DNA from: Clostridia bacterium
GTDB lineage: Bacteria; Bacillota; Clostridia; TANB77; CAG-465
Length of the DNA stretch: 64,000 nt
Assembly (NCBI GenBank): GCA_045604405.1
Contig: JAZUNZ010000047.1
Span: 14,663-78,662, forward strand
Direction: 5' to 3'
How positions within the stretch are numbered: the stretch's first letter is position 1; each line of letters begins with the position of its first letter. The position numbers were made by a program, and so were the translations under genes. Positions 3,508 through 24,470 of the stretch are shown piece by piece. The notes beneath the pieces are model-generated. The model worked only from the letters and a program-made list of their open reading frames with translations. It was not told the DNA's origin and searched no databases.

Positions 3508-3584
3508 TGGTGGGCCTTCAAGGATTCGAACCTTGGACCCACCGGTTATGAGCCGGTTGCTCTGACCAACTGAGCTAAAGGCCC
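3508..3584 (-). tRNA. tRNA with anticodon CAU. It is either elongator tRNA-Met or tRNA-Ile2 (the lysidine type); the two cannot be told apart from sequence alone.
   Basis: The 77-nt sequence GGGCCTTTAGCTCAGTTGGTCAGAGCAACCGGCTCATAACCGGTGGGTCCAAGGTTCGAATCCTTGAAGGCCCACCA forms a perfect cloverleaf with encoded CCA. Confidence 0.9.
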
Positions 3585-8649: not shown

Positions 8650-9290
8650 TATCACGAATTGGTAGTTAATTAAAACAATAATATGTGAATTAAAGTGGGT
8701 GTATTAGGACGGAAGCTATTCATAAATTTGACTTTTTAGCATAATAATGTTATAATATATAACGTATGGCACATTATTCTAGTCGGACTTAACTGTTTTA
8801 GGATGGGCCTAAAAATCCATCGAATAGCACATTAATGGCGTCTTGTATTTATGCTTCTTTCGCCCAGATTGGGGTGTGAGTATAAGGGGTAAAGATTAAG
8901 GTAAATTATATAATGGCATATATGACTCGCCTTTTTCAGCCACACAAATAGTGTAGACCTTTATATAGAGAGTACTATATAATTGTAGCTAGTCGTGCGT
9001 GAAACTTCGGGATAAATGAAACTCTGTTTTGAAATTAGTTTTGCAAAAGCGAATAAGAACAGTGGAAATCCGTCAGGGAAAACCTCTAGAATGTCACAAA
9101 AAGTGAATGTTTTAAGGATTACAGTGTGGACTAAGTGGTAATCAAGTAGCCAGCTAGGCGACAGCTGGATGCCAGTCTTAAAGGGAAACCGCTACAAGGT
9201 AACAAGTAGTGACTAGTAGGGAAATCCGACTTGACCTCAAGCCACAAAATTTACTTAAATCATTGCCATATCATATATAGTATAAAAGGA
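8650..9290 (+). promoter_or_regulatory. Unusually long (about 640 nt) structured untranslated region between the argS terminator and a small membrane-protein gene. It may be a riboswitch leader or an sRNA; the class is not identified.
   Basis: Several stable hairpins are visible (CCAGCTAGGCGACAGCTGG; repeated GGAAATCCG..C motifs at about 9068 and about 9215; GGGAAACCGC). The stretch is GC-richer than neighbouring intergenic DNA. No ORF runs through it. Confidence 0.35.
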
Positions 9291-12921: not shown

Positions 12922-13824
12922 GTGGGCATAGGTCTTGCGTTAAGTGGCGGTGGCGCAAAAGGGATGGCACATATTGGGGTAATTGAAGCTTTAAAAGACT
13001 ACGGAATAAACATAGATTATATTTCAGGTACAAGTTCTGGTAGCATAATAGCAGCTCTTTATGCAGTAGGCTGTACACCAAACGAAATGTTAGAATTAGT
13101 AAACAGAAATATGAATAGAATTATAGATATAGATAGAAATGTTGGATTTAAGCTTTTAGGGACGCTTATGAGTAAAAGAGTAAGTATAAAGGGCTTCATA
13201 AAAGGAAATAACCTTGAAAAATTATTAAGATATATATTAAGACAGAAAAATGTAGAAGACATTTCAGATGTAAAATTTCCACTTGCAATTCCTGCTGTAG
13301 ATTTAAATACGGGAGAAATTGCATATTTTTGGAACAAGCAAGAGGATGGCAGAATAAATTTAGTACAAGACAATAATGGTTATGATGATGAACCATCATA
13401 CCATACAAAAGGTGAGCTTGCAAGTGTTATTAGAGCAAGTTGTAGCGTCCCAGGAGTATTTGAACCTAAGAAGATAAATGACAATTACTATGTAGACGGT
13501 GGAGTTAGAGTAAATACTCCTGTAGAAGTGTTAAGAAAGATGGGAGCGGATAAAATAATTGCAGTTACATTTGACTGCAATAAAAAGACTGCATTTAGTA
13601 TTGAAAATGTTGTAGGAATATCATCGCAAGCATTTAACATAATGACGCATTCTTCTAATATGGAGGAAATAAATACAGCAGATGTGAATGTACATCTGTG
13701 TCTTAACAATGTATCATTATTAGATATATCTAAAGCTACTTATGCAGCAAAAAGAGGGTATAATATAGTAGCTAAAAATATTATTAAAATTAAAGAACTG
13801 TTAGGCATAAAACAAGACATGTGA
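12922..13824 (+). CDS. Patatin-like phospholipase.
   Basis: GGGAKG glycine-rich loop, GTSSG (G-x-S-x-G) nucleophile elbow, and a downstream DGG. Confidence 0.85.
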   Translation: MGIGLALSGGGAKGMAHIGVIEALKDYGINIDYISGTSSGSIIAALYAVGCTPNEMLELVNRNMNRIIDIDRNVGFKLLGTLMSKRVSIKGFIKGNNLEKLLRYILRQKNVEDISDVKFPLAIPAVDLNTGEIAYFWNKQEDGRINLVQDNNGYDDEPSYHTKGELASVIRASCSVPGVFEPKKINDNYYVDGGVRVNTPVEVLRKMGADKIIAVTFDCNKKTAFSIENVVGISSQAFNIMTHSSNMEEINTADVNVHLCLNNVSLLDISKATYAAKRGYNIVAKNIIKIKELLGIKQDM

Positions 13825-14732: not shown

Positions 14733-16052
14733 ATGAGTGAAAAAATAAGTAAAATAAAACCAAGAAACTTGGCGGGATTTCTAGAATTATTACCTAGTGA
14801 CCAAGTTTTGTTTAATAAAATATATGATAAGATACGTTTGTCTTATGAAAAATTTGGATTTACTCCATTAGATACGCCAATATTGGAATATTCTGATGTA
14901 CTTCTTGCAAAAGCAGGTGGTGAAACAGAAAAGCAAATATATAGATTTGAAAAGGGAGATACAGATATATCAATGCGTTTTGATTTAACGGTACCTCTAG
15001 CTAAGTATGTTGCAATGCATAGTGGAGAAATAGCATTTCCATTTAGAAGATATCAAATGGGTAAAGTGTTTAGAGGGGAAAGAACGCAAAAAGGAAGATT
15101 TAGAGAATTTTATCAATGTGATATAGATGTTATTGGCGACGAAACTTTAAGCATTATGACAGATGCAGAACTTCCAGCTATAATATATGATACATTTACT
15201 AGTCTTGGTTTTAATAATTTTACAATACGCATAAATAATAGAAAAATATTAAATGGATTTTTTGACTCGCTTGCATTAACTCAAAAAGCAGCAGATATTT
15301 TAAGAGTGATAGATAAGATAGACAAGATAGGAAAACAAGCGGTAGAAGAAGAATTAGAAAAGTTAGAAATAACAAAAACGACAATTGATACAATTATGCA
15401 GTTTATTACAATAAAGGGTTCACAAGATGAAGTAATTAAGGCTTTAAATAAATTGGGTGTAGATAATGAAGTTTATGCAGAAGGTGTAGCAGAATTAGAA
15501 CAAGTAGTAAATGGAATTAGAGCATTTGGCGTGCCAGATAATAATTTTAGAATAGACTTAACAATTGCCAGAGGATTAGATTATTATACAGGAACTGTTT
15601 ATGAAACAATTTTAAATGATTATCCAGAGATGGGAAGTGTATGCTCTGGTGGTAGATATGATAACCTAGCAGAATATTATACAAACAAAAAGCTTCCTGG
15701 TGTTGGTATTTCAATAGGACTATCAAGGCTATTCTATCAACTAAAAGAAGCAGAGATTATTAAAGCTAAAGAGGCTACAACAGCCAAGGTTATGGTGCTT
15801 CCAATGCTTGAGGATATGTCATATGCATTAAGCACTGCGACTGTGTTAAGACAAGCTGGAATAAATACAGAAGTAAACTATACTAAAAAGAGTGTAAAGG
15901 CTATGATGAACTATGCAAATAGAATTGGTGTAGAATATGTAATAATTGTTGGTGAAGATGAACAAAAACAAAATCTTGTGACAATAAAAAATATGGAAAC
16001 AGGCAGTCAAGAGCTTTGTAGCTTAGATAAAGCAATTGAAATGTTGAAATAA
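14733..16052 (+). CDS. Histidyl-tRNA synthetase paralog. It has the class II core and the anticodon-binding domain, but an atypical N-terminus.
   Basis: Motif 2-like FRGERTQKGRFREFYQCDIDVIG and a C-terminal HGPT-type anticodon-binding domain. No T-box is seen in the 200-nt leader. Confidence 0.7.
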   Translation: MSEKISKIKPRNLAGFLELLPSDQVLFNKIYDKIRLSYEKFGFTPLDTPILEYSDVLLAKAGGETEKQIYRFEKGDTDISMRFDLTVPLAKYVAMHSGEIAFPFRRYQMGKVFRGERTQKGRFREFYQCDIDVIGDETLSIMTDAELPAIIYDTFTSLGFNNFTIRINNRKILNGFFDSLALTQKAADILRVIDKIDKIGKQAVEEELEKLEITKTTIDTIMQFITIKGSQDEVIKALNKLGVDNEVYAEGVAELEQVVNGIRAFGVPDNNFRIDLTIARGLDYYTGTVYETILNDYPEMGSVCSGGRYDNLAEYYTNKKLPGVGISIGLSRLFYQLKEAEIIKAKEATTAKVMVLPMLEDMSYALSTATVLRQAGINTEVNYTKKSVKAMMNYANRIGVEYVIIVGEDEQKQNLVTIKNMETGSQELCSLDKAIEMLK

Positions 16053-16100
16053 TGAAAAAACAGTTGAAAATATTATAAAATTGGAGTATAATGAATATAA

Positions 16101-16210
16101 TATTAATAGTACTTTATGTACTATTACAAAAAGTTGGAATACCCTTGCCGTAGTAGGGAATTAAAAAAGTTTTAGTAAGGTAAAATACCTTACTATTTTT
16201 TGTCGAATTT
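16101..16210 (+). ncRNA. Candidate type III antitoxin RNA (ToxI/antiQ-like) ending in an intrinsic terminator.
   Basis: Promoter TTGAAA-17-TATAAT at 16065-16094. Three degenerate units of about 36 nt each contain TAGTA and a hairpin (AATAGTACtttatGTACTATT; CCCTtgccgtagtAGGG; TAGTAAGGTAaaaTACCTTACTA followed by T6). Confidence 0.4.
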
Positions 16211-16291
16211 TGCGATGAAAAGTTAGTGAAAAACGATTGGCAAACAAACGTTCTTAAAGTATAATGAATCCAATTAATATGAGGAGGATTT

Positions 16292-16702
16292 ATGAAAAAT
16301 TTAAAATTATATTATATTGAAGATGAATATATTAATTATTTAAGACGTTGGGATAAAAAAGTTGCGTACAACAAAAACAAGGGAAGACCATATGTGGGTG
16401 TGGTGTATTCGCACGAAGGTACAGATTACTTTGTACCATTACATTCACCAAAAGAAAAACATAAGATGATTAACGATAAAGCTGTAGATATATATAAAAT
16501 TAAAAGTGGAGAATTAGGTGTAGTAAACATTAATAATATGATACCGGTTCCTATGAGTGTGTTGTCTGAAGTGCTACCATTAATAACTGATAGAAAATAT
16601 AAAGCTTTATTAGAAAATCAACTGACTTTTTTGAATAACAACAAAAGAGAACTATATAAAAAGATATCATGGTTTATCTTTTTGTATCAAAAGGGAAGAT
16701 AA
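16292..16702 (+). CDS. toxN: Type III toxin-antitoxin endoribonuclease toxin, ToxN/AbiQ family.
   Basis: YIEDEYINYLRRWD..RPYVGVV..YFVPLHSPKEKHK..GVVNINNMIPV..ALLENQLTFL is collinear with AbiQ/ToxN. It has its own promoter, TTGGCA-17-TATAAT. Confidence 0.8.
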   Translation: MKNLKLYYIEDEYINYLRRWDKKVAYNKNKGRPYVGVVYSHEGTDYFVPLHSPKEKHKMINDKAVDIYKIKSGELGVVNINNMIPVPMSVLSEVLPLITDRKYKALLENQLTFLNNNKRELYKKISWFIFLYQKGR

Positions 16703-16920
16703 AATGAAAGAATATTAAATAGATGTTGTGATTTTCAGTTGTTAGAATCGAAGTGTTTAGAATACAAAAAGAACAATAAATAATGATGGGCATTTTAACA
16801 AAAACATGAACCTAGCACAAAAACTTAACAATTTTTGCTTGACATTGACTTTAACATAATATATAATATTTGAGTAATGAAGAAAACTAGATATTTATTT
16901 ACTTAAAGGAGGGAAATAAA

Positions 16921-17118
16921 ATGGCACAACCAAAAAGAAGATGGTCAAAAGCTAGAACAGCACTTCGTCGTTCTACATGGAAATTAGAAGAAAAATCACT
17001 TGCAACATGTGAAGCATGTGGAGAAGTTATACTTCCACACAAAGCTTGCCCTGCTTGTGGTAAATACAATAAAAGACAAGTAGTTGAAATAAAGGCTAAA
17101 AAAGAAGAAAATAAGTAA
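16921..17118 (+). CDS. rpmF: 50S ribosomal protein L32.
   Basis: MAQPKRRWSKARTALRR plus a CxxC..CxxC zinc ribbon. Promoter TTGACA/TATAAT upstream. Confidence 0.93.
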   Translation: MAQPKRRWSKARTALRRSTWKLEEKSLATCEACGEVILPHKACPACGKYNKRQVVEIKAKKEENK

Positions 17119-24072: not shown

Positions 24073-24404
24073 AGCAAGTATTTCTGGCAGTCGCGCAAAG
24101 TATATTTGTGAGGAAAGTCCGGGCACCTCAAGGTAGTAATGGTAGATAACGTCTACTGGGAGTAATCCTAAGGAAAGTGCAACAGAAAATAACCGCCGAA
24201 AGGTAAGGGTGAAAAAGTGAGGTAAGAGCTCACTAGCATTTATGGTGACATAGAAGCTTTGTGTAAACCCCATTTGGTGCAACACTGATAAAGAAGGTTA
24301 AGGGTACCTTGCCGTCTTCTTGAAAAGTGGCTTGAGATATATAGCAATATATATCCTAGATTAATGACTGTCTAAAACAGAACCCGGCTTATGAAATGCT
24401 TGCT
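24073..24404 (+). ncRNA. rnpB: RNase P RNA (rnpB).
   Basis: GAGGAAAGTCCGGGC (P4 5' strand) and ACAGAACCCGGCTTA (P4 3' strand). P1 pairing is AGCAAGTATTTC / GAAATGCTTGCT. A T-run follows. Confidence 0.9.
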
Positions 24405-24470
24405 TTTTTTATATATAAGTGATAGAATACTAAAAATAAAATTAAGCAATATTTTAATAGATATGCGGGG

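Follow-up and report, generated by a model that had tools for sequence, protein, structure and literature searches.

A chromosomal ToxN_Bt-like toxIN locus with a single ToxI unit and a probably inactive toxN gene in a Clostridia bacterium

Results

In a 64,000-nucleotide stretch of contig JAZUNZ010000047.1 from a Clostridia bacterium, which was analysed over its full length and is called the window here, the histidyl-tRNA synthetase gene hisS and rpmF enclose an 868-bp insert with a G+C content of 26%, as compared to 31% for the window. The insert holds, in this order, a putative promoter of the sigma-70 type (P1), a 9-bp hairpin, a 36-nt segment between two A-runs, a terminator, a conserved box, a second predicted promoter (P2), a ribosome-binding site and an open reading frame (ORF) of 136 codons (Table 1). 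This locus is very probably a ToxN_Bt-like chromosomal ToxIN module, a type III toxin-antitoxin (TA) and abortive-infection (phage-defence) system, the antitoxin array of which has contracted and the toxin gene toxN of which is probably inactive. A preliminary description of this DNA, made from the nucleotide sequence without database searches, had placed the ORF between a hisS-type gene and rpmF, and this siting holds, with HisRS upstream and rpmF downstream; its designation of the former as a hisS paralog finds no support, as HisRS scores 420 bits with the NCBIfam hisS equivalog (cut-off 286.75) and no second hisS copy is present in the window.

A single canonical ToxI unit

A covariance model built from 93 distinct related repeats (ToxI alignment A4) and run with its filters off on the whole window recovers one unit (16128-16163), the runner-up scoring 15.5 bits, and no other ToxI units able to act in trans are found elsewhere in the window. 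The Rfam ToxI family RF02519 likewise gives one match (16131-16164, 30.1 bits, E 0.0057, model positions 1-34 of 34), so that ToxI is detected by both searches, though once only. The gathering threshold of RF02519 (50 bits) is not reached; as the units of intact multi-copy relatives score lower still (24-25 bits), the sub-threshold score characterises the subfamily and does not reflect decay of the unit. The window unit is one substitution away from a unit that recurs identically in five related arrays, which speaks against the diverged antitoxin or new pseudoknot variant considered in the preliminary description, and the toxin without antitoxin that it had offered as a further option is wrong as stated, one canonical ToxI unit still being there. 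The unit is fully canonical and non-degenerate, present once and followed by the first 8-9 nt of the next (AAAAAAGTT). An A-run and GT follow the last unit in every array inspected, the period from G to G (16133 to 16169) is 36 nt and all units in A4 begin with an A-run. Since A-runs (16128-16132 and 16163-16168) bracket the pseudoknot core on both sides, a complete unit would be excisable from this non-repeated precursor, cleavage at the flanking A-runs being predicted by analogy to the specificity of ToxN_Bt and AbiQ.

Covariation supports the prediction that the ToxI unit folds into an H-type pseudoknot. Its two stems join columns 9-10 of A4 to 21-22 and columns 15-18 to 28-31; they are paired in 94.8% of cells over the 93 units, as compared to 31-65% in slid controls. 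Pair 9-22 is realized as GC75/AU17/CG1, with none unpaired, and pair 15-31 as CG58/UA21; double-sided changes occur in four of the six pairs, and the observed covariation score was reached by none of 500 shuffles. All six pairs can form in the window unit, G16136-G16137 with C16148-C16149 in stem A and C16142-U16145 with A16155-G16158 in stem B.

Promoter P1, which had been placed at 16065-16094, is confirmed as TTGAAA-17-TATAAT at 16064-16092; its position and hexamers are kept in the related loci L001, L003, L004 and L085. From this putative promoter a ToxI transcript of ~100-110 nt is predicted to run to the intrinsic terminator, in agreement with the ~110-nt RNA and strong terminator described before. 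A scan for terminators gives two sites in the region (one stem, read on either strand) versus 0.1 expected in shuffles, the position is conserved in L001, L003 and L004 with compensatory changes in the stem, and the stem and T-run sit 90 nt upstream of the toxN ATG. The leader hairpin is present in the minimum free energy fold of the window sequence. Among 63 distinct leaders of the family (40 nt before the first A-run), 37 fold better than at least 95% of shuffles, with a hairpin that typically ends a few nt from the A-run and stem sequences that are unrelated between subgroups. As leader and terminator also occur in loci with three perfect repeats, they are framing elements of the array and not decayed repeats.

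Three loosely similar ~36-nt units, each with TAGTA and a hairpin, had been described in this RNA. That the region is not a clean tandem array is borne out, the repeat finder TRF (minimum score 30) detecting no tandem arrays in 15900-16900; the three units themselves dissolve, as the family model, again with filters off, scores the middle segment alone (59 bits) and the leader and terminator hairpins obtain no ToxI score even at E<=10. Three copies of TAGTA are indeed present on the + strand (16107, 16151 and 16173; about one per 500 nt per strand is expected), each in a hairpin-capable segment of ~35 nt, and the terminator segment opens with the same AAAAAGTT as a repeat, but the copies in the hairpins are not conserved, with TAGTG in the leader of L003, TAGCA in the terminator of L004 and GAGTA in the terminator of L085.

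The toxin gene and its premature stop codon

The 136-aa product is a ToxN/AbiQ protein, as proposed before: it matches Pfam PF13958 (E 1.8e-33, 116.4 bits, cut-off 25) over profile positions 1-127 of 159 and PADLOC AbiQ at E 3e-34. Its C-terminus is short by ~26 aa, the preliminary estimate having been ~30, which is not the outcome of a shorter design, since the rest of the toxin is still encoded behind an in-frame TAA (16700-16702), where the toxN frame stays open for 26 codons up to a second stop (16781-16783). Read through the TAA, the protein scores 139.9 instead of 116.4 bits with PF13958 and covers the profile completely (1-159/159). The relic segment aligns to the R-C-C..L-E motif of homologs and to 4ATO, 4GLK and 7D8O, and the best match of the read-through protein in the PDB is ToxN_Bt (4ATO, E 3e-23, residues 3-161), followed by AbiQ (4GLK, E 1.8e-14), while ToxN_Ec (7D8O) and ToxN_Pa (2XD0) are also among the best sequence matches, with end-to-end alignment. 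A frameshift was rejected as the source of the short ORF, the C-terminus remaining in frame after the TAA.

The protein database holds 182 homologs, the nearest full-length ones with 160-165 aa and 80-85% identity. Leu occupies position 137 in 90% or more of the homologs; the codon, TAA in the window, is TTA in L084 and L004, so that one T->A substitution at 16701 is enough to explain the stop. The ratio of nonsynonymous to synonymous substitution rates (dN/dS) among toxins of the clade is 0.05-0.09, with dS>1, in every estimable pair including four with the window; toxN has therefore evolved under purifying selection up to recent times, and its nonsense mutation is young. The truncation is thus a recent point mutation and not an adapted shorter toxin.

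The complete fold of the family comprises a beta core and five helices including a C-terminal one; the 136-aa product falls short of it, with profile positions 128-159 missing. An AlphaFold2 model of P0001, a full-length relative 85% identical to the window toxin (predicted local distance difference test score 94.5), shows a kinked helix 101-133 followed by helices 139-142 and 148-162, and superposes over its whole length on the four solved ToxN/AbiQ structures (template modelling (TM) score ~0.8, ~165 aligned columns). As the stop precedes helices 139-142 and 148-162 and the motif with R144, C146 and L151, which are invariant in 34 homologs, the nonsense mutation removes, according to this model, two helices of the common fold (~26 aa) and the near-invariant R-C-C...L-E motif. 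Most likely the truncation destroys or cripples the toxin.

A second promoter and a conserved box upstream of toxN

The window and the loci L001/L002, L003, L004, L084 and L085 constitute what is called the window clade here. Between the last unit and the toxin ATG, 127-173 nt are found in the window, L001, L003 and L004, as compared to ~60 nt in canonical loci; the extra segment is also present in L085 and, as far as its contig reaches, in L084. It contains a box with the consensus TTGCGA(T/C)GAAAAGT, identical in the window, L003, L004, L084 and L085 and with one change in L001, although its flanks diverge, and it is absent from canonical three-unit loci. Candidate roles for the box are those of an operator, UP-like element or RNA element; a small ORF in it (ATG AAA AGT TAG) was rejected, the ATG being absent in L001. 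Downstream of the box lies the predicted promoter P2, with a -10 element TATAAT in six of six loci, -35 elements TTGACA, TTGAAA, TTGGCA or TTGACC and divergent spacers of 17-18 nt, and farther downstream the AGGAGG of the ribosome-binding site is invariant in the clade alignment. On this basis toxN of the window clade appears to have a promoter of its own. The -10 regions of P1 and P2 repeat each other (AGTATAATGAAT), and a 17-nt direct repeat on the + strand of the window spans both of them (16085-16101, AGTATAATGAATATAAT; 16258-16274, AGTATAATGAATCCAAT), which suggests that P2 arose through duplication of P1.

Related loci: repeat number, toxin state and synteny

Related loci were collected from species-representative genomes (80) and metagenomes (80), with a few added by exact protein look-up, and all compared sequences are metagenome-derived assemblies. 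A first metagenome scan with a single protein gave no matches; the 80 metagenome loci come from an alignment-based scan, none of them exceeding 68% identity, so that the window clade did not grow beyond the few loci named above. Relatives with a toxin at least ~50% identical carry tandem units of 35-37 nt with the core GGAATACCCTTGCCATAGTAGGGA upstream of toxN, usually three, sometimes two or four.

Within the clade, L003 has 4.3 units (TRF) and an intact toxin, L001/L002, from two samples, one unit and an intact toxin of 162 aa, L004 one unit and a toxin gene with a stop at codon 39 (TAT->TAG), and the window one unit and the stop at codon 137. Outside the clade, a single unit coexists with an intact toxin in L110 and L121. 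Three units are present in L120, L122 and L124, two in L123 and one in L121, all with the same predicted toxin of 162 aa (identical over the residues examined) and, in L120, L121 and L123, which were inspected, with identical flanks; in the same way L111 with three units and L110 with one share a predicted 162-aa toxin (identical over the residues examined). Repeat number is therefore polymorphic down to one, the 3/2/1 and 3/1 series reflecting either natural variation in copy number or arrays partly collapsed in assembly. As intact toxins adjoin one-unit arrays in three lineages, the sequences argue that a single unit can suffice.

Toxins are disrupted in five of 13 lineages with at most two units versus five of 50 with at least three (Fisher p = 0.025; distinct lineages, counted by hand), an association of contracted arrays with broken toxins that is suggestive only. 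It keeps open a weaker form of the earlier idea of antitoxin loss. Neighbour-joining trees of toxN and hisS are both star-like, differ from each other in details and have the four-unit locus L003 among the one-unit loci, a pattern that would fit one contraction as well as several, and either direction of change.

The gene order patatin-HlyIII-hisS-toxIN-rpmF-rluA-prfB is complete in L001. hisS lies upstream of toxIN in L001, L003 and L004, with 85-91% protein identity to the window HisRS, and rpmF downstream in L001, L002 and L004; the upstream gene of L002 is truncated on its contig, and the contig of L003 ends before rpmF.

A second cassette is located just downstream of toxN in sister loci (L001 5569-5645; L002 ~1252-1365; L003 3613-3685) and consists of a promoter, a leader hairpin, 2.2-3 copies of a different 36-nt unit (AAAAAGCAGTGAATCCAGCCATCAAATTGGAACTTA) and a terminator. 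In L001 no toxin gene lies between this cassette and rpmF, and a cassette of the AAAAAGCAGTGAATCCAGCCATCAAATTGGAACTTA type is absent from the window. As a second ToxN subfamily (L040-L047, L057, L061 and L071; toxins ~44% identical) has units of this type in its upstream array, the second cassette is either an array of orphan antitoxin units or what is left of a second toxIN in tandem. Elsewhere, second divergent ToxN homologs (32-42% identity) occur a few kb from the first (L010 851-1249, L043 4469-4978, L044 5887-6384, L045 4135-4605 and L073 2275-2736); toxIN modules of different subfamilies are therefore often found side by side.

Other features of the window

On the + strand, two genes upstream, a patatin-like phospholipase is encoded (12922-13824), which matches CBASS-lipase and anti-phage phospholipase models weakly and far under their cut-offs; since L001 has it in the corresponding place, it probably has a housekeeping role rather than belonging to a defence island. 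The window also holds an OLE (ornate large extremophilic) RNA at full length (8750-9285, + strand; RF01071, 283 bits, gathering threshold 50, model positions 1-616 of 616), which fits an anaerobic Bacillota host. The class A bacterial RNase P RNA (24075-24406, + strand, 261 bits) and one tRNA (3511-3584, - strand) are routine housekeeping RNAs.

Table 1. Features of the toxIN locus and its flanking genes, in window positions
Feature	Position	Strand	Description
Promoter P1	16064-16092	+	TTGAAA-17 nt-TATAAT; consensus scan 11/12; putative ToxI promoter
Leader hairpin	16104-16126 (arms 16104-16112/16118-16126)	+	9 bp, 5-nt loop; perfect inverted repeat I9
5' A-run AAAAA	16128-16132	+	5' end of the unit; putative ToxN processing site
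ToxI unit	16128-16163	+	36 nt; family covariance model R1, 59 bits, E 1.4e-13
3' A-run and GTT (AAAAAAGTT)	16163-16171	+	Vestigial start of the next repeat; would supply the 3' processing site
Intrinsic terminator	16173-16201	+	10-bp stem 16173-16195, then TTTTTT; terminator scan
Conserved box TTGCGATGAAAAGT	16210-16223	+	13 nt upstream of the P2 -35 element
Promoter P2	16237-16265	+	TTGGCA-17 nt-TATAAT; scan 11/12; predicted, between terminator and toxN
Ribosome-binding site GAGGAGG	16281-16287	+	4-nt gap to ATG
toxN ORF	16292-16702	+	136 codons; Pfam PF13958; premature TAA 16700-16702 (codon 137)
Relic C-terminal coding segment	16703-16783	+	26 codons in the toxN frame and the original stop 16781-16783
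hisS	14733-16052		Histidyl-tRNA synthetase, upstream of toxIN; NCBIfam hisS equivalog
rpmF	16921-17118		Downstream of toxIN

Discussion

The window locus belongs to a ToxN_Bt-like subfamily that is common in metagenome-assembled genomes (MAGs) of gut Clostridia and Bacilli, and is a member of a known family in decay rather than a new kind of antitoxin. Among the features by which type III loci were operationally defined by Blower et al. 2012 (PMC3401426), a Rho-independent terminator precedes the toxin, and tandem repeats are lacking in the window (no arrays found by TRF, which gives 4.3 copies for L003); as the locus departs from the tandem-repeat definition and part of the toxin fold is missing, it is filed as a contracted and recently inactivated variant.

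ToxN enzymes cut their own precursor at A-rich sites, ToxN_Bt at A/AAAA and AbiQ at A/AAA (PMC5086642), and retain the excised pseudoknot via its 5' and 3' tails in closed inactive heterohexamers (PMC8860590). Transcription from P1 would thus give an RNA of ~100 nt with the leader hairpin, an A-run, one 36-nt ToxI pseudoknot, the second A-run and the intrinsic terminator, of which, in an intact relative, the endoribonuclease ToxN would cut both A-runs and keep the freed 36-nt pseudoknot bound head-to-tail, in a closed ToxI:ToxN ring in which ToxN would stay inactive. Once the supply of ToxI stops, for example by phage-induced shut-off of transcription, the ring would be expected to disassemble. 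In the window clade, two promoters probably set the ratio of toxin to antitoxin, beyond repeat number and read-through of the terminator. The array may have contracted from about three units to one, most simply via recombination or slippage between repeats with both end sites kept, and codon 137 of toxN would have changed from TTA to TAA after this contraction, leaving a recent pseudogene and an orphaned antitoxin that is probably still expressed. In phage phiTE, a pseudo-ToxI of 1.5 repeats is known in which the phasing prevents a complete unit (PMC3475682), unlike the window precursor. No naturally single-repeat type III loci and no data on C-terminal truncation of ToxN were found in the literature searched.

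The closest solved relative of the window toxin is ToxN of ToxIN_Bt from Bacillus thuringiensis pAW63 (4ATO; RF02519), with E 3e-23 and ~35-40% identity, the window toxin being truncated. Both loci share the arrangement of promoter, A-run-delimited pseudoknot repeats, terminator and toxin; the length of RF02519 (34 nt) equals that of the published ToxI_Bt repeat and was matched end to end by the window unit, and the cleavage motif A/AAAA fits the window A-runs. ToxI_Bt, on the other hand, has 2.9 repeats of 34 nt as compared to one 36-nt unit (~1.2 copies) in the window, and the window locus differs from ToxIN_Bt in being chromosomal, between housekeeping genes and with a second predicted promoter before toxN. 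The systems of Pectobacterium atrosepticum pECA1039 (2XD0/2XDB) and E. coli (7D8O) share the toxin fold of the P0001 model (TM score ~0.8), the active-site Ser and Lys and an antitoxin that is likewise an H-type pseudoknot with single-stranded tails carrying cleavage sites, and the Arg of the window toxin at the Lys33 position is also found in E. coli clusters 4 and 5. They differ in having 5.5 repeats of 36 nt that are unrelated in sequence, cleavage at AA/AU or GAAAU and a single promoter with terminator read-through, as opposed to one repeat and two promoters (P2 as predicted) in the window. AbiQ/antiQ of Lactococcus lactis (4GLK), of the same toxin family, has repeats of 35 nt, 2.8 in number, and A/AAA cleavage; at least 1.8 repeats are needed and clones with 0.8 are inviable (PMC5086642), whereas 1.2 is the natural number in the window, L001, L110 and L121. 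Nearest are the three-unit loci of gut Clostridia and Bacilli MAGs (e.g. L005-L036, L085 and L120), the toxin of which is named 'type III toxin-antitoxin system ToxN/AbiQ family toxin' by NCBI. They share the leader hairpin, A-run punctuation and terminator, with units up to 35/36 identical to that of the window and toxins 52-85% identical; they differ by three (sometimes two or four) units, mostly intact toxins of 158-179 aa and, in most cases, the lack of the box/P2 segment with the correspondingly short distance of ~60 nt from the last repeat to ATG (127-173 nt in the window clade).

Several observations weigh against the reading of a contracted and recently inactivated module. In the native context, antiQ needs at least 1.8 repeats and ToxI_Pa 2.5 (PMC5086642), the window having ~1.2 copies. 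In the truncated protein the beta-core is complete, and the catalytic residues are retained together with the kinked helix 101-133 that binds RNA, so that it may have residual activity. Aligned to Lys33, Thr52, Ser53 and Lys55 of E. coli ToxN, the active site reads R32, H51, S52 and K54; the equivalent of Thr52 is His throughout the window clade (PLHSPK; codon 51 of the window, 16442-16444) and T, S or A in other intact relatives, a difference from the E. coli active site that may bear on catalysis. Copy number and stop codon are taken from one assembly, and short-read assemblers can collapse tandem repeats. Finally, the reading is sequence-based, with expression, processing and toxicity or its loss predicted for the locus and for its subfamily alike.

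A broader reading, tentative but the best placed of the alternatives, regards the clade as a rewired, long-resident chromosomal ToxIN in which P2, apparently a duplicate of the P1 -10 region, and the box would uncouple toxin dosage from terminator read-through and so make a lone pseudoknot sufficient, the module being kept between hisS and rpmF, under strong purifying selection, in at least four species-level lineages past synonymous saturation, with the window copy as a recently broken example. Less probable, and on balance unlikely, is a working minimal system in the window itself, in which one unit would be enough owing to P2 and ToxN(1-136) would be an attenuated yet active nuclease with a role in TA or abortive infection (Abi). 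Single units do coexist with intact toxins in L001/L002, L110 and L121, the equivalents of the catalytic site and helix alpha4 all precede residue 136, and P2 and box are conserved in a clade the toxins of which are under strong purifying selection. The deleted segment, though, holds some of the most conserved residues of the family (R144, C146 and L151 invariant) and corresponds to two well-predicted helices of the common ToxN fold, the solved structures superposing on the model over ~165 aligned columns; besides the window and obviously broken genes, none of the 182 homologs ends naturally near residue 136, and in the sister single-unit locus L004 the stop at codon 39 indicates that pseudogenisation occurs in the clade. 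A working defence system at the window locus is unlikely.

Slightly less probable again would be that ToxI is retained as an orphan to neutralise related ToxN from phages, plasmids or other genomic toxIN copies, in the sense of anti-addiction or immunity. The cassette of P1, leader, unit and terminator is intact and canonical beside a broken toxin, the toxin-less second ToxI cassette before rpmF in L001/L002 indicates that orphan arrays persist at this intergenic site, and phage-encoded ToxI mimics are known (PMC3475682). Against it, the nonsense mutation looks recent, so that persistence of ToxI needs no selection, the 64-kb window holds no other ToxN homolog, and cross-neutralisation of related ToxN by an orphan ToxI is only a prediction. 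An artefact, in which short-read assembly would have collapsed a normal multi-copy array and/or codon 137 would in truth be a sense codon, is improbable to a somewhat higher degree still: arrays of identical 36-nt units such as that of L085 could collapse at small k in these metagenome-derived sequences, the 3/2/1 series of L120, L123 and L121 could in part be an assembly effect, and the 136-aa protein (P0005) is the only member of its cluster, on one NCBI contig. About 50 distinct arrays with at least three units were nevertheless assembled correctly by the same kinds of pipeline, a single unit recurs in independent samples (L001/L002) and in two more species of this clade, an assembler would have to use k below the repeat length to leave exactly one unit, and an error yielding an exact stop is unlikely at normal coverage. 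An upstream RNA composed of three diverged ToxI-like hairpins, as a degenerate antitoxin or new pseudoknot variant, is highly improbable in view of flanks that fail the covariance model, leader hairpins of unrelated sequence that the majority of family loci possess, also beside three perfect repeats, and TAGTA copies that are not conserved.

That the family has natural one-repeat alleles, some of them beside intact toxins, matters for genome annotation. The usual way to identify type III TA loci is to look for tandem repeats ahead of a ToxN homolog (PMC3401426); repeat-based screens would label one-unit loci as 'solitary toxins' or miss the antitoxin, and the Rfam ToxI threshold misses the whole subfamily. 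The 3/2/1 series, together with the association of contracted arrays and broken toxins, provides a natural data set on the need for antitoxin and on the decay of modules, and the conserved box and second promoter suggest a layout unlike the textbook design of one promoter and a leaky terminator. If the tentative reading of the clade as a rewired ToxIN were true, tandem repeats would be dispensable in nature for type III systems, and TRF-based surveys would systematically miss such loci.

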